From an uncultured Lachnospira sp. (GTDB lineage: Bacteria > Bacillota > Clostridia > Lachnospirales > Lachnospiraceae), in NCBI GenBank assembly GCA_910585095.1, contig CAJUBU010000002.1:76622-140621 (forward strand): DNA of 64,000 nt, given 5' to 3'. Every line of letters starts with the position of its first letter. The first letter of the stretch is position 1. The position numbers and the translations under genes were made by a program. The notes under the pieces are model-generated. The model was not told the origin of the DNA. It ran no database searches and was given only the letters and a program-made list of their open reading frames with translations. This document shows positions 44,146 to 56,634 of the stretch, piece after piece.

Positions 44146-45942
44146 CTATAAAACTTCATCTACAGAATATACAAACACACCATTACTTTTGCCTTTCAAA
44201 GGAATAATGCCAACTTCGGTCACTTGAACACGCTCTTTTACCTGCTCATAGACATCTTGACTGATAAGGATTTGTCCTGGTTTTGCATTGCTTTCTAATC
44301 TTGCAGCAGTGTTTACAGTATCGCCAATTGCTGTATAATCCATACGAGCCTCACACCCAATATTTCCCACGACTGCATTGCCACAGTTTACACCAATACC
44401 AAAACTTATTGTTTTGCCAAAACGTTTTTGGAGCTTTTCCTGCAATTCGGCACTTCCTGCTGCAATATCCCTTGCAGTACATACCGCCTTGTATATATAA
44501 TCCTCTAAATCAAATGGTGCATTAAACACTGCCATTGTTGCATCACCAATAAATTTGTCAAGTGTTCCGCCATTTTTAAATATAGAATCTGTCGTAAGAT
44601 TCAAATACTCATTTAAAATCCCTACAACTTCCTCTGGCTGCAATGATTCAGACATTGGCGTAAAACCGCGTATATCAACAAACAACACAGCTATATGGCG
44701 ATTTTCTCCGCCTAAGGCAATCTGGAAATCTCCTTTTTTTGAAATTTCCTCCACAACTTGTGGTGCAACATATTTTTTAAATGCAGATAAAACTTTTCTT
44801 TTATGAAGCACCTCTGCCAAATATTCATATATTAAGTGTACCACGTATGTTAATAACAGAACAATAGGCAATTCTACAATATTTATAATAAAGCCGTTTA
44901 AGTATAAAACTTTGCCCACAGCAACATCAAAAACAATCAGAGCCAGCAATAAAATAATACTGTAACGAATCTTTAATTTTCGGATTAAAAAATAAAATCC
45001 TACAACAATAACTGTACATATTAATGCGTAAAGCGCGCTATTAACTGGAAGTGCTGTTTTTCCTTCCATAACAGCCTCAAGTATATTGGCATGAATTTCT
45101 ACCCCGTACATCTGTGCGCCTTTTTGGACAGCTACATTGTAGGCATCCTGAAGTCCTGGTGCATATACGCCAACCAGAACAATTCGGTCAGCAAACGCCC
45201 TGACATCAACTTTTCCCTGCATAACATCAAGCATAGAAACAATTTCATAAGCGCCGCTTTTTCCTGTAAATGTAAAGCCAAAAATACCATTGGCATCGGT
45301 GTCTGGCATCTGCACTGCAATTCCCCTGCTCTCACAGTAATGCCTGTAAGCACAGATTGCTAAGGAAGGGATTTCTTCTCCCTTATAGTCCGCTTTTGTC
45401 AACGCATAACGAATATATCCATCGGTATCTTGTATCGTGTTTGCAAAGCCATAATCTGTTACTTGCTTTAATGCCTCATATGGAAACTCCACTGTCTCCA
45501 CATGGTTACTATCCACATAAAGACCATTGGAACCTTGCGTTACTTTTGTTTTCCTTACCACGTCAACGGCAGTGATAACGTTGCCTGCCTTCTTACAGGC
45601 ATCGGCAAATTCTTTATCATCTGCATCATTTGTTGTGCCTGCATATATAATATCCATAACAATAGCTGAAGGCGCCGACTGCTCATTTTGATTTAACATT
45701 TCAATAAGCTGTGCATATCGGCTTCGACTCCATGTTTCAATCTTTCCATATTCTTGCAACGTTTTTTCGTCGATTGCAATGATTGCAATATCTTTATTGG
45801 CTGTTGTCGGCGTTTGATAACACATATCTGAAAATATCTTATCAAACGAATACAAAATCTGCGACCAACATAACAAAAATGTCAATAAAGCAATAATAAC
45901 AGGAATGATATATTTCCATATAAGTTTTCTTGTATTTTTCAT
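44146..45942 (-). CDS. CHASE2-sensor class III adenylate cyclase
   Basis: An N-terminal TM and a periplasmic CHASE2-like domain (IAIIAIDEKTLQEYG...WSRSRYAQLI), followed by three TM helices. Cyclase domain (VLFVDIRGFT, LDKFIGDATMAVF, DYTAIGDTVNTAARLES). A GGAGA RBS is present. Confidence 0.85.
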   Translation of the reverse strand: MKNTRKLIWKYIIPVIIALLTFLLCWSQILYSFDKIFSDMCYQTPTTANKDIAIIAIDEKTLQEYGKIETWSRSRYAQLIEMLNQNEQSAPSAIVMDIIYAGTTNDADDKEFADACKKAGNVITAVDVVRKTKVTQGSNGLYVDSNHVETVEFPYEALKQVTDYGFANTIQDTDGYIRYALTKADYKGEEIPSLAICAYRHYCESRGIAVQMPDTDANGIFGFTFTGKSGAYEIVSMLDVMQGKVDVRAFADRIVLVGVYAPGLQDAYNVAVQKGAQMYGVEIHANILEAVMEGKTALPVNSALYALICTVIVVGFYFLIRKLKIRYSIILLLALIVFDVAVGKVLYLNGFIINIVELPIVLLLTYVVHLIYEYLAEVLHKRKVLSAFKKYVAPQVVEEISKKGDFQIALGGENRHIAVLFVDIRGFTPMSESLQPEEVVGILNEYLNLTTDSIFKNGGTLDKFIGDATMAVFNAPFDLEDYIYKAVCTARDIAAGSAELQEKLQKRFGKTISFGIGVNCGNAVVGNIGCEARMDYTAIGDTVNTAARLESNAKPGQILISQDVYEQVKERVQVTEVGIIPLKGKSNGVFVYSVDEVL

Positions 45943-46133
45943 TGCTTTTTTCTCCAAAACTTTATAAGTACTATAAAAATTAAATATAATATTCAACTTA
46001 TAACTTAAAAATAAATCTTAATATTCTCTACAAAATAATCAGTTTACATAGTTTATATATATATCGGCAATTTCTTTTAAAAACATAGCGAAAATTGCTA
46101 TAAAATAACAATTTTACTATAACAATGAAACTG

Positions 46134-49202: not shown

Positions 49203-52200
49203 TCAAAAACATTCCCGAATTTTCTTATATATTGCTTTGCATTTGCGTCCAAATGTCTGTTTCATAACCCTAAAAATTCCCCACATACCAGATTCTACAT
49301 CCCATGCAAAACTGCCTGAGCGATAAAGGTAATCACCAGGACAACTGGCGCCATCTAAAAGTTCCACATCAAACTTATTGCCAATACTAACACCACCTTG
49401 TAAAGGAATAATTCTTGAAAATGGGTCTTGTAGCTGTTCTTTCCATAAATGGTCGTGAATTGCAATAGATGTATTTCTTGGCTTATCTGCGGGCATTATA
49501 ACTCGAAAAACAACTCGGTCTCCAGGATAGGCTTTCCATATAGGAGTTGCTGGGTCGCCATGTACTTTACTACTAAATACCTTCCATACTCTAGGGTCTC
49601 TTGCAAGACGATTTGCAAATCGTTCCGACCTATAATTGTAGCCTTTTTCTCCTGTGTCTTCTGCATCTACTGGCTCTCCGTTATCCTCTGCCGCAGTTTG
49701 GATTATATTTCCCTTTACATCAAGCAAACGGATTCCATTTTGAATAAATACAACATATTCTCGAAAATTCTCAATTCCTGGCGCTGTAATTACTGCCTGT
49801 TCTGCAAAATCATCTTTTTTTCTGGTAAAATTTCGATACCACTCTGCACCTGCTGGTTCTACAATAACCGCTCCAAATAATCCATGATAACGATGGTTTC
49901 TCATATCTCCAAAAGACTGTATAATACAGCCTCCATACTCTTGATTTGCATGCCAAAGATATCGCTTGCTCTCTCCAACCCCTACGGTCTGTTCCATTTC
50001 ATTATACCCTATATTGATGCCAGAATCACAAACGGGATTATATTGCAGAAATTGCGGATTTAAAGAAACTCTCATAGAAGGTGTATATTCCTTATCCAAA
50101 GGAACTCTCGGATAAGAAAAATAAGGAATTGGATGTTCTGGATTCCATGCATTATGCAAGGTAACCTCTATCCAGTCGCCTACATTTGCCCTGAGAATTA
50201 ATGGCTTTGGCATACATTTTCCTGACAATATATTATCCAAGTCCTCTAGGGGAACAAATAGCAAGCCATTTGGGTCATGGTCACCATATCGGTTGTAAAT
50301 TAACTTCTTTTGCACAGCAACAATTTCATAGCGCCTAATTACATCATCTTTTGACGGACAAGGCAAAAGAGGGTGAATCATACCTTTTCCTTGATATAAT
50401 GGTTTTAAGTGCTTTCTATATCTTCTATGCACTCGTATAATCCCCCAAAGTCCAAGCCATACATCATCAATACCTCCAAAATAATAGAGATAGTCTCCTG
50501 CACCATATTTTTGCGTTACATTCAAATTAAATGCCTCTGATACTCCTAATGTCTGAGAAGCGGCAAGGGGTGACTTGAAATCTGCGGATTCTTTTTTCCA
50601 TGACATACCTGTAATATTAAAGGAATGCTGTTCCTCATGCGCTCCGTCAAGCAGGCGAATCATCAATTCATCACCTGGATAGGTTTCAAAAATTGGTGTT
50701 GCTGGGTCACCATGCACAAAAGAGCTAAAAATATATGCTGGGTCTTCTTTTTTGCGAAGACGCTCTCTCATTGGCTCTGCTCTGTAATTAATTCCCATAA
50801 CACCTGGGTCGTCATGAGAACCAGGAACTTTCGGCGGATTAAGCGGGTTCCCTTTTCTATCGAAAAGAAAAGCAAAATCATGGACAAACAAAGCAAATTC
50901 CCTGAACGAAGTTCCATTTTTTCTGCGGATAACCGCCTGTGTTCCAAAACGCAGCTCTTTTCCATTCTGTGGATTATGAAATGTAGCTCCTGCCTCCTCA
51001 ATAATCAATGCGCCAAACAATCCATGCTGCTGATGAACATTAGCAAACAGATGGTCATGAAAGAATATCGTTTTTAATTCTTCATTTGCAAAAAAACGTT
51101 CCACTAATGTTTCGTATCGCCTTGCACCTGCAATATTATTCCAGCCATTAGCTGCCCCGTCTGAAACAATAGTATCAAATTTTACTAAATGTACATGATG
51201 ACCTACAATATCCGTCCTCGTTTTAGGCTGAAATGGACTTTCTTCAATAAATTCAGGCAAAAGGTTTGTGGTGCGTAGCTCAATACAATCTCCTGCATTT
51301 GCACGAATGACTAAAGGTTCTACTTTTATTTCTTGTTTTTCTACTTTACGAATATAACACTCCAAGCCTCCATAACGCTCCAATTCTTCCTTGAGAACAA
51401 AAAAACGTCCCTGTGGGTCATGCCAGCCATAGCGGTTATAGGTGATTTTTGCCTGTACCATGGCAATCTCAAATATTTTTACATTCTTATCTGTATGACA
51501 TGGACAAGTGTCTGTATACAATGCACCAGGCACTGCATTTTCCACAAAATTAGCACGCTCAAGCGGGGTTGGTTTATTAGTCACTTCCCCATTTGGTCTC
51601 AATACACCAAGCGGTGGCTGCAACGGCTTTTCACCAAACTTGCCCTCAATAAAATTAGGATAACCTGGATGCATGTTATCTTTCTTTGGTGGACACTCCC
51701 TGTCTTTTAACGGCACAAGCGGCAAAATAGGTGTCCCATCAGGCAATTTTCCACTCCCATCCTGAAGTCGGTCATAAATTCTCCATAAAGTCCACATTCC
51801 CTCAATAAAATGAGGATAGAGATGACAATGAAATATCACGTCTCCAATCACTCTATTTAGGCTTCCAGCTCCGTATAAAATATCTAATGTATAACATTCT
51901 TGTGGACTAATACTAACAGAATCCAGAATCGTTGAAACGGGATTGTCTGGCTCTAATCTCCACTGATGGTTATGAAGATGAAAAACATGAGTTTCCTTCA
52001 CTCCACCATGAATCAATCGTATCTTTACTGGGTCGCCGACATAAGCAAAAAGTATTGGCGGCGCTGGGTCACCATATACCCATGAACTCATAGATACATC
52101 TTCTGCAGAGTCAGCAGGGTCATGTGTTTTTGGCATTCGATTTCGCATAGGTTCAGAACGATAACTGATTGCTGTTGTTGATGCTGGAAGTCCTGTATGA

Positions 52201-52850
52201 GTATCAACTGGCGGTTCACCATCTTTATTTAAAATTTCCAACTCATCGTGAAAAAAAATACTATACTCCCTAAATGCTGGCTTTCCGGGCTGGTAAATAT
52301 CTGCCATCAACCCGCTTTTCAATTCTTCACCCGTTTCTGGATTAAACCACTTTGCTTCTGGCGCTTCTACAATAACAGCTCCAAACAGACCATGAATGTT
52401 AGTTGCATCTTCTGTACTTCTGCAATCTGCCATATCGTGAAACAGATATACGCCCTCTGTATCCGCATACCACGTATACCAGATTTCTCCGCTTGTAGTG
52501 CTGTCATTATTGTATCCTACACTGCTTCCATCTGAAGTATTAACATCATAAGAAAGTCCTTGTACATGTATCGACAATCTCCGATTGAGACAATTCCGAA
52601 ATCGAACTTTCACCGTATCTCCTAAATTAACGCGAATTACTAACGGTTGCACTTCCTTATATGGCTGTGGTATATCCATCTCAAATCGTTGGAGTGCTTC
52701 TCTTTTAATCCTTGCAGCATCTTCCTCAAACACATAAAGCAGTCCATTCGGGTCATAATCTCCATATCGATTATATACAATAGGAATCTGTATTGCCTCA
52801 ATATGAAAAATCTTGACATTTTCTTTCTTTGGGTATTTGCATAATTCCAT
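49203..52850 (-). CDS. Leaderless multicopper-oxidase-like protein of about 1215 aa built from three tandem two-domain repeats (six predicted cupredoxin domains)
   Basis: Canonical MCO motifs HVFHLH (HxxHxH) and HCHLYPHFIEGM (HCHx3Hx4M), plus HHVHL and FHDH. Three-fold repetition of the blocks NVKIF.I..Q..YNRYG.(Y/H)DP.G, PL(V/I)(I/L)RAN.GD, HGLFGA(V/L)I(V/I)E, FRE(Y/F), YR(S/A)E and HGDPA(T/P)PI. The ATG at 52850 follows a GGTAGGA RBS and lies 1 nt after the upstream stop. Confidence 0.7.
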   Translation of the reverse strand: MELCKYPKKENVKIFHIEAIQIPIVYNRYGDYDPNGLLYVFEEDAARIKREALQRFEMDIPQPYKEVQPLVIRVNLGDTVKVRFRNCLNRRLSIHVQGLSYDVNTSDGSSVGYNNDSTTSGEIWYTWYADTEGVYLFHDMADCRSTEDATNIHGLFGAVIVEAPEAKWFNPETGEELKSGLMADIYQPGKPAFREYSIFFHDELEILNKDGEPPVDTHTGLPASTTAISYRSEPMRNRMPKTHDPADSAEDVSMSSWVYGDPAPPILFAYVGDPVKIRLIHGGVKETHVFHLHNHQWRLEPDNPVSTILDSVSISPQECYTLDILYGAGSLNRVIGDVIFHCHLYPHFIEGMWTLWRIYDRLQDGSGKLPDGTPILPLVPLKDRECPPKKDNMHPGYPNFIEGKFGEKPLQPPLGVLRPNGEVTNKPTPLERANFVENAVPGALYTDTCPCHTDKNVKIFEIAMVQAKITYNRYGWHDPQGRFFVLKEELERYGGLECYIRKVEKQEIKVEPLVIRANAGDCIELRTTNLLPEFIEESPFQPKTRTDIVGHHVHLVKFDTIVSDGAANGWNNIAGARRYETLVERFFANEELKTIFFHDHLFANVHQQHGLFGALIIEEAGATFHNPQNGKELRFGTQAVIRRKNGTSFREFALFVHDFAFLFDRKGNPLNPPKVPGSHDDPGVMGINYRAEPMRERLRKKEDPAYIFSSFVHGDPATPIFETYPGDELMIRLLDGAHEEQHSFNITGMSWKKESADFKSPLAASQTLGVSEAFNLNVTQKYGAGDYLYYFGGIDDVWLGLWGIIRVHRRYRKHLKPLYQGKGMIHPLLPCPSKDDVIRRYEIVAVQKKLIYNRYGDHDPNGLLFVPLEDLDNILSGKCMPKPLILRANVGDWIEVTLHNAWNPEHPIPYFSYPRVPLDKEYTPSMRVSLNPQFLQYNPVCDSGINIGYNEMEQTVGVGESKRYLWHANQEYGGCIIQSFGDMRNHRYHGLFGAVIVEPAGAEWYRNFTRKKDDFAEQAVITAPGIENFREYVVFIQNGIRLLDVKGNIIQTAAEDNGEPVDAEDTGEKGYNYRSERFANRLARDPRVWKVFSSKVHGDPATPIWKAYPGDRVVFRVIMPADKPRNTSIAIHDHLWKEQLQDPFSRIIPLQGGVSIGNKFDVELLDGASCPGDYLYRSGSFAWDVESGMWGIFRVMKQTFGRKCKAIYKKIRECF

Positions 52851-52851
52851 A

Positions 52852-53763
52852 CTAATTCCTACCCTTCTGTGCATGATTTAAAATACGTAAATAGTGATTT
52901 GCTTCACGAAGTACATGGTCTGCCAAAAGAGGAAGAATAACAGAACGGATTTTACAATCTGTAATACCTTGTGTTCCCGCTGTCTTAAACTGCTGATATT
53001 GTTTTGTTGTCTGCAATGTTGTTGCAGTCAACGCATTCATTACTTTTCTTTCCTGTTCTCTCGCCTCTTCTAAAAGATGACAGTAATCTTTTGCAAATTC
53101 ATTGGCTTTTTCAATCAATTCACACTCTGTTGGGTCTAATAATCCCCGAATAAACTGAGCATGTTCCATCATAATCTGATTCCAAAATATTTCCATATTT
53201 CTTAAATCAAACATTGGGATTCTACCATTCTTTTCAAGCTCTAAAATAATCTGGCGATATAATTTCGCTTCCCGCAAGATATGTTCAATCAACAGGGGAT
53301 AATTTGTAGTATAAAGTCTACACCTTGTCACTTCTCTTAAAACCTCTTCTTTAAATGAAATCAATCCATTCAAGCTTTTTAGCATCTGGCGATTTAACAT
53401 TCTTACCTGAGAAATCATTTGTCTATTTACCATCATATTATTTTTAGAACAAAGTTGTTCTTCCTCCTCCGTAATCTTCACATCAATTGGGATTCCTGTC
53501 AAATCGCTTGTCTGGCATTCTGCTTTTTGCGTAAATTCTGTTACAACCTCTCCAGAATCTAAAACAGCTTGGCTTACAATGCCATTTGCAAGCTCTACTG
53601 TCTTTTTTAATCCCTCCTCAAATTCTTGTCGGAAGCAATCTGCACGCTGTATAAACTCGGTTTCCTTTGTCGGAAAACTTGCGAGCAAAAATAAGGAATG
53701 TTCCTTCATAATTCTTCCAAAAAAAAGATGTGTTTCTAGTGATAAAGTCGCATATTCTTTCAT
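52852..53763 (-). CDS. DUF2935-like helical (putative metal-binding) protein with internal duplication
   Basis: Two homologous halves each carry IM(K/M)EH(S/A).F and PLL(I/A)(E/D)H(I/V)LREA(K/N).Y. From memory the pattern matches Firmicute DUF2935 proteins. Confidence 0.6.
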   Translation of the reverse strand: MKEYATLSLETHLFFGRIMKEHSLFLLASFPTKETEFIQRADCFRQEFEEGLKKTVELANGIVSQAVLDSGEVVTEFTQKAECQTSDLTGIPIDVKITEEEEQLCSKNNMMVNRQMISQVRMLNRQMLKSLNGLISFKEEVLREVTRCRLYTTNYPLLIEHILREAKLYRQIILELEKNGRIPMFDLRNMEIFWNQIMMEHAQFIRGLLDPTECELIEKANEFAKDYCHLLEEAREQERKVMNALTATTLQTTKQYQQFKTAGTQGITDCKIRSVILPLLADHVLREANHYLRILNHAQKGRN

Positions 53764-53967
53764 ATATTAGCATACCTTTATAATTTAGAGTTCTCTATAC
53801 TATATGCAAAAAATATCAAAAAGACATACATAAAACCAAGAAATCTATGAAGTTTTCTGCTCTTTTTTGACATAGAACAATTAGAATGAATTGAAATTTC
53901 ACAATATTGGTGATATGATAACAAATATGATAAAAACTGCCAAAAAACACCAAAAGGAAATAAGCTT

Positions 53968-54823: not shown

Positions 54824-55363
54824 ATGAATACTACATATTCCAACAGCCACATTACACTGCGCGTATTAGATGAACGCCACAGTCGGCATATTCTTGATTT
54901 TTACAGCAATAACCGACAGTATTTTGATATTTACGAAATGGATAAACCTGCTTCTTTTTATACATCCGACTTTATAAAACAAATGACAAAAGCGGAATAT
55001 AATGCCTTTATTCAAGGAACATTTATCCGCTATTTTCTATTTGCCAACAATAATCCAGACCAAATTATTGGCTGCATATCCTTTTCAGATATCAAAAAAA
55101 GTATGCTTTCTTGTACGATTGGATATAAAATTGACAAAAATTATCAAAATTTAGGTTATGGGAGACGTATGTTGACTATGGCTTTAAAATTTATGGTTAC
55201 AGAATGTAATATGCATCGAATTGAAGCTTATATTCACCCTTGTAATCGGGCATCGCTGCACCTTGTAAAAACACTTGGTTTTATTGATGAAGGCACAGCT
55301 TATGCCTATGCCAAAATAAACGGACAATGGATAGACCATCTTCGATTTGTTTATATTTCCTGA
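54824..55363 (+). CDS. GNAT-family N-acetyltransferase (RimJ/RimL-like)
   Basis: About 180 aa with an acetyl-CoA binding block (QNLGYGRRML) and a typical RimJ-like N-terminus (ITLRVLDERH). The ATG at 54824 follows GGGGA. Confidence 0.8.
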   Translation: MNTTYSNSHITLRVLDERHSRHILDFYSNNRQYFDIYEMDKPASFYTSDFIKQMTKAEYNAFIQGTFIRYFLFANNNPDQIIGCISFSDIKKSMLSCTIGYKIDKNYQNLGYGRRMLTMALKFMVTECNMHRIEAYIHPCNRASLHLVKTLGFIDEGTAYAYAKINGQWIDHLRFVYIS

Positions 55364-56634
55364 TACCAATATCCAAAATGAGGGTTGGCATAATCACTTC
55401 TATGGCTCTTTTTAAAATTGACAAACCCAAACATAGAAGCCATATAACGCTCACGATTACAATATATTCCTGGCACTCCAATAAAATATTTTGTATGCCT
55501 GTCATTATCTTCAACTCTGCCAAACAAAATATGTTTAAAATTATAATAGCCATGTATTAGGAAACTATTTCCTAATATAATCTCATCTGAACCTATTGCC
55601 TTTTCTATCTGCTGCGGCGTTACCTCAATACAGTCATATAAATCATCATCACTAAATACATTGATAATATCGGCATTGATAAATAATTCTTCAAATTCTT
55701 TAATTTCATTGGTTTGAATTTCATTCTGCCTACTTGTCTGCTGTTCATTTTTTGAAGATGATTTATCCTCATATTTATTTTTTTCTAAAATAATCGATTC
55801 TTCCTTTGGCTGTTCTTGTTGTGTCACTTTTTCTTCTGCTCTAATTATATCATTTTCGCAGGCAACAAGGTCTTCCCTGTTTTCTAATTCTGATTTTAAT
55901 GGAAAGGATATTATCCCAGCTTTCTCTTTTAATGCTGTTTCTTTTACTGTTGTTTTATTCGTTTGTTTTTTTTCTTCAACTTCCGTATTTGACTTTTTTT
56001 CTTTCGGTTCAAATGCTACTTTTGACATGGTTTCTGTAGTATCAAATATGTTTTCTGATATTTGTTCTTTATCAGCTAATGATGTTTTTGATATTTGTTT
56101 TTCTGTATCGTGTGATTTTGAAAACATACTGGCTGCTGTAATCTCTGACATTGGATTAACAACTTTAACCACTTTCATATTCTTCTTATGTTCTTTTGGA
56201 AGTACATTGCATTTGTTTACATCAATTTCTCCTTCATTCCACAAACTAAAAATTGTATAATACGACTGATTGTCTGCTTTAATTGCCATTCCCTCAATAT
56301 CATCATAATTATATGCAGAACCTATAATATCTTCTGGATTAACCATAACATTACATTGACCTGCACCATTATAAATATTCATCTCAGATATTTTTAATAG
56401 ACTAAAGGATGATTTTTCATCCTCCGTATTTGTTTTTCTATCCACAAGCAGATATATACCATAAGTTCCAGAAGCTCCAGCATACATACCCCTTATTGAT
56501 ATATTAAAACTAAGCCTCTCTCCGCGCACTTCAATTCTAGCAAAGCCAATATTTTTATCTCTCACTCCTCCAATATAAGAGTGCATATATGATATTAACC
56601 TTTTATATTCTATCAATTTAAGCCTTCCTTTCAA
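55351..56634 (-). CDS. Hypothetical protein: conserved-looking N- and C-terminal domains joined by a low-complexity E/K/T/S linker of about 200 aa
   Basis: The ORF is clean and has no motif I recognise. The start is uncertain (TTG at 56634 or ATG at 56586). Confidence 0.5.
   Translation of the reverse strand: MKGRLKLIEYKRLISYMHSYIGGVRDKNIGFARIEVRGERLSFNISIRGMYAGASGTYGIYLLVDRKTNTEDEKSSFSLLKISEMNIYNGAGQCNVMVNPEDIIGSAYNYDDIEGMAIKADNQSYYTIFSLWNEGEIDVNKCNVLPKEHKKNMKVVKVVNPMSEITAASMFSKSHDTEKQISKTSLADKEQISENIFDTTETMSKVAFEPKEKKSNTEVEEKKQTNKTTVKETALKEKAGIISFPLKSELENREDLVACENDIIRAEEKVTQQEQPKEESIILEKNKYEDKSSSKNEQQTSRQNEIQTNEIKEFEELFINADIINVFSDDDLYDCIEVTPQQIEKAIGSDEIILGNSFLIHGYYNFKHILFGRVEDNDRHTKYFIGVPGIYCNRERYMASMFGFVNFKKSHRSDYANPHFGYWYQEI

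Follow-up and report, generated by a model that had tools for sequence, protein, structure and literature searches.

How does a multicopper oxidase come to carry its copper-ligand motifs in the order 3-4-1-2, and what kind of enzyme is it? The question is raised by a long gene on the minus strand of a 64,000-nucleotide stretch of contig CAJUBU010000002.1 from an uncultured Lachnospira sp. (the whole stretch is hereafter the window). A preliminary description of the gene product had proposed that a single type-1 (T1) copper and one trinuclear cluster survive at the interface between the second and third of six cupredoxin domains (D1 to D6), in an order circularly permuted relative to classical three-domain oxidases. 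Translation of the open reading frame (ORF) returned every motif string of that description at the residues and coordinates collected in table 1. We find the proposed copper sites supported by homology to MnxG, a manganese oxidase of solved structure. However, a single D2/D3 copper centre is an already known hallmark of the MnxG-type family, and the novelty of the finding itself is none.

A phmmer search of the PDB gave one overwhelming match, chain A of entry 9bxa, MnxG of Bacillus sp. PL-12 (E=0, 1033 bits), collinear over residues 21-1207 against 3-1207. The MnxG counterparts of the four intact motifs are THVFHYHVHQW (with H281, H284 and H286 as the motif-3 histidines), HCHLYPAFGIGMW, GFHIHFVKFD and FFHDHLF. 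From sequence and homology, D2 would contribute the T1 ligands H296, C350 and H355 with the axial M360, together with the cluster histidines H299, H301, H349 and H351, and D3 the remaining four cluster histidines, H560, H562, H606 and H608. The protein holds a single complete ligand set, eight histidines for the trinuclear cluster and His/Cys/His/Met for the T1 copper, divided between these two domains. The sole difference in the ligand columns is an alanine of 9bxa_A opposite H355, which corresponds to the engineered H340A of that entry ('Structure of Mnx H340A complex from Bacillus sp. PL-12', released in 2024). All 12 ligand residues are invariant in alignment A2, which comprises 150 homologues with a mean column identity of 49% and derives from a search seeded with a distant family representative (P0127). 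Given the end-to-end alignment with MnxG and this invariance, the motif pattern is not a product of chance. The reading of HHVH as motif 1 holds for H560 and H562, which are ligand-equivalent, but not for H559, which lies opposite a Phe in MnxG, is Q, L or M across the family, and is therefore a non-ligand.

The predicted fold points in the same direction. An AlphaFold (AF2) model computed from alignment A2 (predicted local distance difference test, pLDDT, 92.1; predicted template-modelling score, pTM, 0.92) superposes in Foldseek on 9bxa_A with a template-modelling (TM) score of 0.93/0.92, a root-mean-square deviation of 2.9 Å and 42% identity. With 52 close homologues (76-91% identity) as input, the model was of low confidence (pLDDT 49.6, pTM 0.43), and its Foldseek matches count as weak support only. 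Ceruloplasmins are matched by the A2 model with TM 0.56-0.67, factors V and VIII with TM ~0.55, and two-domain laccases with TMt ~0.68 per repeat; over the two models, three-domain oxidases of the CotA/CueO type are matched weakly (TMt 0.25-0.47). In the sequence search the next PDB matches were Streptomyces two-domain laccases (E ~1e-12; residues 78-138 and 273-366, corresponding to D1 and D2), followed by factor V. The modelled six-domain ring is of the MnxG/ceruloplasmin type, and the copper-site geometry would follow from a fold near-identical, and ligand columns identical, to those of MnxG. With collinear full-length homology, the same fold, six cupredoxin domains arranged as three two-domain repeats, and a single T1 site in D2 with eight cluster histidines over D2 and D3, the oxidase is, as judged by sequence and model, a full-length member of the known MnxG-type (Firmicute) family of six-domain multicopper oxidases.

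Other families were considered and set aside. The NCBIfam model NF041487 (copper_ox_MnxG), a Pseudomonas-type equivalog of 1894 positions, scores 342 bits in eight fragments against a cut-off of 3100; on this comparison it is a related superfamily and not an equivalog of the window oxidase. The ceruloplasmin/hephaestin family has the fold alone in common, since D1 reads H-x-Q/H-x-M here and H-C-H is replaced by Y-F-G in D4 and by R-S-G in D6. Classical three-domain oxidases (CotA, CueO, laccase) are at odds with six domains, a functional motif order 3-4-1-2 and the weak structural match, and type B two-domain oxidases (SLAC), whose ~300-aa chain forms a homotrimer with three complete copper sets, with a single 1215-aa polypeptide holding one.

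Where, then, does the motif order come from? The chain is built of three internal repeats with 33-37% pairwise identity in a MAFFT alignment, each comprising two cupredoxin domains, and the repeats of MnxG cross-match every repeat of the window oxidase. Pfam recognises Cu-oxidase_3 in D1, D3 and D5, and Cu-oxidase_2 in D2. An alignment of the repeats had been proposed as a check of the copper-site reading, and it bears that reading out: the three repeats align, MnxG is collinear with matching ligand columns, and the degenerate strings of the other domains share columns with the intact motifs (HxH for motif 1, HxH for motif 2, HxxHxH for motif 3 and HCHxxxHxxxxM for motif 4), as expected if the equivalent positions there have been replaced. 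A PDB search with D3 alone found MnxG as the sole relative, and the equivalence of the D3 motifs to those of classical oxidases comes from the repeat alignment and a weak Pfam Cu-oxidase_3 match.

The phrase 'circularly permuted' is apt for the order of the motifs along the chain and misleading as to its origin. A true circular permutation, that is, a gene rearrangement of a classical three-domain CotA/CueO-type oxidase, would also set motifs 3-4 ahead of 1-2. However, the D(odd)-D(even) unit occurs three times in the chain, collinearly and each time with its columns in the normal order 1-2-3-4; each repeat is like the two-domain laccases; and six-domain ceruloplasmin is collinear with the chain over its full length. 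We regard such a rearrangement as extremely improbable, and the literature invokes instead differential loss among three interfaces. Vasin et al. (2013; PMC3600357) surveyed bacterial six-domain oxidases, among them the MnxG proteins of Bacillus and Clostridium. Every one of these has its trinuclear-site histidines in D2 and D3 and its sole mononuclear site in D2, with some residues of the lost sites still in place; the authors derive the pattern from an ancestor that had three T1 sites and clusters at D1|D6, D2|D3 and D4|D5, of which different ones were lost in different lineages. In mnxG, copper region D (HCHL) has also been described upstream of region B (PMC3039467). The protein would consist of three tandem two-domain (SLAC-like) cupredoxin units in a pseudo-threefold ring, a triplicated two-domain oxidase in which only the D2|D3 site of three ancestral copper sites survives. 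Out of three pseudo-equivalent inter-repeat interfaces, the MnxG-type lineage kept D2|D3 and ceruloplasmin kept D6|D1. A single T1 copper in D2 and one cluster at the D2/D3 interface are therefore supported by the collinear homology to a solved structure, the 12-ligand invariance and the literature; since the latter, with the older mnxG work, describes the same arrangement, the preliminary inference was right but not new.

The copper pattern of the window oxidase is the norm of its family. When 1.84 billion cluster representatives were scanned exhaustively with HMMER, 2679 relatives were recovered, 846 of them at E≤1e-30, and ligand sets were counted by domain in the best 150 of the 2679, with denominators that vary by domain. 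The set is complete in 111/116 representatives for D2, in 100/106 for D3 and in 85/91 for both, and in none for D4, D5 or D6. D1 has HH/HH in 13/101 representatives, mostly much larger proteins. A subset of much larger members (1500-3400 aa; P0126, P0137, P0145, P0150, P0163, P0174, P0177) has HH/HH in D1, some of them with Cys..His..Leu remnants in D6 as well, and this subset may retain parts of a second copper site.

The proposal that the other four domains are a non-catalytic scaffold is tentative. Several vestigial histidines are conserved as well, which hints at a remaining structural or metal/substrate-binding role: H750 (50625-50627, minus) is found in 118/134 representatives and is invariant in A2, H103 (52566-52568, minus) in 86/103 and H1142 (49449-49451, minus) in 85/102. 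This is above expectation for dead remnants and would fit an alternative scenario with more than one metal centre, in which H103/H146 in D1, H750 in D4 and H1140/H1142/M1197 in D6 form extra mononuclear copper or substrate (Mn) sites and the other domains are not just scaffold. However, none of these positions comes with a Cys or a full His set, D4, D5 and D6 are never complete, and such residues have been read as an evolutionary residue of lost sites (PMC3600357); we consider additional centres unlikely. The D2-D3 linker carries, just ahead of D3, a Cys-Pro-Cys-His string (residues 457-459 being C-P-C, inside TDTCPCH; 51498-51506, minus). C457, which MnxG also has, is kept in 60/91 representatives, and C530 in 76/107; the two might be joined in a disulfide or make up an accessory Cu(I) site.

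In multicopper oxidases generally, substrate is oxidised at the T1 copper, electrons are transferred over a Cys-His triad, and O2 is reduced to water at the trinuclear cluster. In the window oxidase the substrate would be oxidised one electron at a time at the D2 T1 copper, and the electrons would pass via the H349-C350-H351 triad to the D2/D3 cluster, where O2 would be reduced to water.

The genomic setting provides additional clues. The oxidase gene is the second of a two-gene operon whose first gene encodes a DUF2935 protein of 303 aa. The residue numbering of the preliminary description is exact from the first ATG, at 52874, and is kept here. However, homologues of 1215-1217 aa begin with MELC.., and a GGTAGGA ribosome-binding site precedes the ATG of M9 at 52850. 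Translation thus probably starts at M9 and gives a product of 1215 aa, so that the true residue numbers are probably 8 lower. The stop codon of the DUF2935 gene lies 1 nt before this ATG. Of the 75 assessable species loci, 52 have DUF2935 next to the oxidase gene and on its strand, 6 have it nearby and 17 lack it. The oxidase-linked copies keep paired E-H / H-x3-E motifs (E21/H22, H161/E165, E200/H201, H283/E287), and DUF2935 is a putative di-metal helical-bundle protein; the searches matched no phage family to it and found no literature on its function.

Bacillus MnxG works as a complex with MnxE and MnxF (MnxG·E3F3). Neither accessory protein was found by phmmer and profile HMMs in the six-frame translation of the 64-kb window and of 85 related loci. 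Beside the relatives in Bacillus spizizenii, Priestia flexa and Lachnospiraceae KM106-2 (L086-L088) there are two small upstream genes. By PDB search the B. spizizenii pair is MnxE (9bxa_B, E 3e-27) and MnxF (9bxa_E, E 1e-14), the pairs of P. flexa and KM106-2 match it reciprocally, and DUF2935 is absent from all three loci. Two locus types can thus be distinguished, mnxE-mnxF-mnxG in Bacillales and Lachnospiraceae KM106-2, and DUF2935-oxidase in the window clade, with no MnxE/F detected. Because Bacillus MnxG has been reported to need MnxE/F for active expression (PMC5622069), the window clade is, in the loci searched, an E/F-less variant whose partner may be DUF2935. More tentatively, one can envisage that in a large clade of gut Clostridia, which takes in Lachnospiraceae, Oscillospiraceae and relatives, the MnxE3F3 accessory hexamer has been given up and the oxidase coupled translationally to the His/Glu-rich helical-bundle metalloprotein DUF2935 under a mother-cell sporulation promoter. 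Strict anaerobes would then possess a so far undescribed spore-surface oxidase of two components that uses O2, with DUF2935 as metal-loading or redox partner.

The same two circumstances, strictly anaerobic hosts and missing proteins reported as required for active Bacillus Mnx, could also be taken to indicate a pseudo-enzyme, a non-catalytic structural spore protein that merely keeps the motifs. We reject this reading, which we judge highly improbable, because the 12 ligands are invariant over 150 sequences that otherwise average 49% column identity, and sets are complete in ≥94% of representatives, a pattern that marks a working copper site under purifying selection.

Ahead of the DUF2935 gene we found a conserved box with the consensus GCATATAnTATArAGAA (core CATATAnTA), ~43 nt from the start codon and position-specific across 58 distinct, otherwise diverged upstream regions; in loci without DUF2935 a similar box immediately precedes the oxidase gene. 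It matches the −10 consensus of the mother-cell sigma factors sigmaE/sigmaK of C. difficile (CATATTAT/CATATAAT; PMC3789822) and is a candidate −10 element of a mother-cell sporulation promoter. Sigma-70 and terminator scans of the oxidase locus were no better than shuffled sequence. A signal peptide is not evident at the oxidase N-terminus (MELCKYPKKENVKIF...). The mnxE-F-G-like cluster of B. spizizenii (L086 1-11700) lies amid spore-coat genes of the Coat_X, CotX/CotZ and CotO families. Together with the missing signal peptide and the spore-coat genes around the homologue in B. spizizenii, the box suggests that the oxidase is a spore-surface enzyme.

As the best overall explanation, and one we hold with high confidence, the gene encodes an MnxG-type oxidase with D2/D3 copper that is probably spore-borne, with DUF2935 as a possible accessory. 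The enzyme would be made in the mother cell, placed on the spore surface and work when spores meet oxygen, its substrate most likely being Mn(II), or another metal ion or a phenolic; the co-transcribed DUF2935 metalloprotein may serve as accessory in place of MnxE/MnxF. The spore-surface placement and the Mn(II)-like substrate are proposed from the likeness to MnxG in identity and fold, from the promoter box of sporulation type and from the absence of an evident signal peptide. In another scenario the oxidase is active on a substrate other than Mn(II), as a laccase, bilirubin oxidase, ferroxidase or cuprous oxidase, for example in spore pigment formation or cross-linking as with CotA. This would agree with an identity to MnxG of only 42%, with the different accessory proteins and with its generic database label, 'multicopper oxidase domain-containing protein'. 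However, the Mn oxidase MnxG is by far the closest characterised relative, and the JGI names some relatives 'manganese oxidase'; we see a non-Mn substrate as a serious possibility, though not the favoured one.

Several points weigh against a spore-borne MnxG-type oxidase with these copper sites. The Cu-ligand distances and the ~13 Å spacing from T1 to cluster derive from homology, and the window clade is known from its sequences. The hosts are strict anaerobes, in which an O2-dependent enzyme looks out of place, except one that acts on dormant spores. Conservation is low in the −35 region of the putative promoter. Finally, since the MnxE/F reported as necessary for active Bacillus MnxG (PMC5622069) are missing here, activity or substrate may differ from those of Bacillus MnxG.

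We found relatives of the oxidase in over 569 species genomes, of which the 80 best-matching come almost entirely from gut Clostridia; the closest, at ~90% protein identity, are Faecalicatena-like or Lachnospiraceae metagenome-assembled genomes. Faecalicatena contorta and Anaerostipes faecalis are examples of species with the operon. As a gain for annotation, the name MnxG-type can be given to thousands of gut-microbiome entries now listed as 'multicopper oxidase domain-containing protein'. By itself, a single copper centre in permuted order matters little, being a textbook signature of MnxG-type six-domain oxidases, and 9bxa shows the same six-domain fold. The sole aspect of some, modest novelty is an operon, seen in anaerobic gut spore-formers, that pairs the oxidase with DUF2935 and lacks MnxE/F. 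Oxidases of this kind, O2-dependent and probably spore-borne, occur widely among strict anaerobes of the gut. They may be relevant to the tolerance of spores to oxygen, to the handling of metals and to the transmission of commensals, and a role of DUF2935 as partner would, if true, give the first functional context for this orphan family.

In the neighbourhood of the operon, a CHASE2-adenylate/guanylate cyclase gene (44146-45996, minus) and a gene for a 427-aa protein with a C-terminal DUF6128 and a long low-complexity middle rich in Glu, Lys and Ser (55351-56634, minus) are both unlinked to the oxidase in other genomes. No credible small ORF was found downstream of the oxidase gene. The oxidase gene is somewhat GC-richer (0.40, at 50001-52000) than most of the window (0.28-0.40, typically 0.30-0.36).

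Table 1. Features of the oxidase locus, in positions of the window; residues are counted from the first ATG.
Feature	Position	Strand	Residues	Basis or remark
Six-domain MnxG-type multicopper oxidase gene	49203..52874	minus	1223 codons/aa	ORF and translation
DUF2935 gene, upstream in two-gene operon, oxidase second	52852..53763	minus	303 aa	Pfam PF11155 E 3e-66; PDB 3d19 'conserved metalloprotein' E 3e-31
Candidate −10 element CATATAGTA, 43 nt upstream of DUF2935 start	53798..53806	minus		sigmaE/sigmaK-type mother-cell sporulation box, by conservation and consensus
Repeat 1 (D1, D2 and long D2-D3 linker)	51498..52826	minus	17-459	repeat alignment
Repeat 2 (D3 and D4)	50355..51497	minus	460-840	repeat alignment
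Repeat 3 (D5 and D6), all four motif positions degenerate	49206..50354	minus	841-1223	repeat alignment
Motif 3, D2, THVFHLH	51972-51992	minus	295-301	H296 T1 ligand; H299/H301 cluster ligands (predicted)
Motif 4, D2, HCHLYPHFIEGM	51795-51830	minus	349-360	C350/H355/M360 T1 ligands; H349/H351 cluster ligands and Cys-His electron path (predicted)
Motif 1, D3, HHVH	51189-51200	minus	559-562	H560/H562 cluster ligands (predicted)
Motif 2, D3, FHDH	51051-51062	minus	605-608	H606/H608 cluster ligands (predicted)
Degenerate motif 1, D1, IHVQG	52557-52571	minus	102-106 (H103-V-Q105)	repeat alignment
Degenerate motif 2, D1, FHDM	52431-52442	minus	145-148 (H146-D-M148)	repeat alignment
Degenerate motif 3, D4, HSFNITG	50607-50627	minus	750-756 (H750..N753.T755)	repeat alignment
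Degenerate motif 4, D4, YYFGGIDDVWLG	50451-50486	minus	797-808 (Y-F-G...D....L)	repeat alignment
Degenerate motif 1, D5		minus	N939-P-Q941	repeat alignment
Degenerate motif 2, D5		minus	Q986-S-F988	repeat alignment
Degenerate motif 3, D6, IAIHDH	49449-49466	minus	1137-1142 (columns N1134..A1138.H1140)	repeat alignment
Degenerate motif 4, D6, YRSGSFAWDVESGM	49284-49325	minus	1184-1197 (R-S-G...D....M)	repeat alignment

Comparison with known systems places the oxidase as follows. Each of its repeats resembles one monomer of the two-domain laccases (Streptomyces coelicolor SLAC and relatives, e.g., 3cg8 and 7w6v). In SLAC trimers neighbouring units share the trinuclear cluster, one through its domain 2 and the other through its domain 1. 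Unlike the SLAC homotrimer with its three full copper sets, the window oxidase has three units fused in one chain, with two of the three sets lost. With CotA, a spore-coat enzyme, and CueO it has the four ligand motifs and the chemistry in common; in those enzymes, by contrast, the motif order is 1-2...3-4 and the cluster lies between the first and last domain. Human and rat ceruloplasmin, hephaestin and factors V/VIII share the six-domain pseudo-threefold ring (TM 0.54-0.67), with even-numbered domains able to hold T1 copper. However, ceruloplasmin has a D6|D1 cluster and T1 sites in D2, D4 and D6 (PMC3600357), whereas in the window oxidase one T1 copper and the D2|D3 cluster are all that is left, and identity is ~12%. 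Chlamydomonas Fox1, an algal six-domain ferroxidase compared here by its description, likewise has its trinuclear histidines in domains 2 and 3, but this eukaryotic protein keeps a mononuclear site in domain 4 that the bacterial proteins lack (PMC3600357). Clostridium homologues of MnxG have been listed before, from C. perfringens (ZP_02951893) and C. methylpentosum (CLOSTMETH03020) (Vasin et al. 2013; PMC3600357). MnxG of Bacillus sp. PL-12/SG-1, a spore exosporium Mn(II) oxidase, differs from the window oxidase in being accompanied by MnxE/MnxF instead of an upstream DUF2935 gene, and the window oxidase belongs to an anaerobic gut organism of the Lachnospiraceae type. The two proteins are alike in a length of ~1220 aa, in six collinear cupredoxin domains in three repeats, in fold, in copper-ligand columns with T1 in D2 and the cluster at D2/D3, in the lack of a signal peptide and in spore-associated genomic signals.

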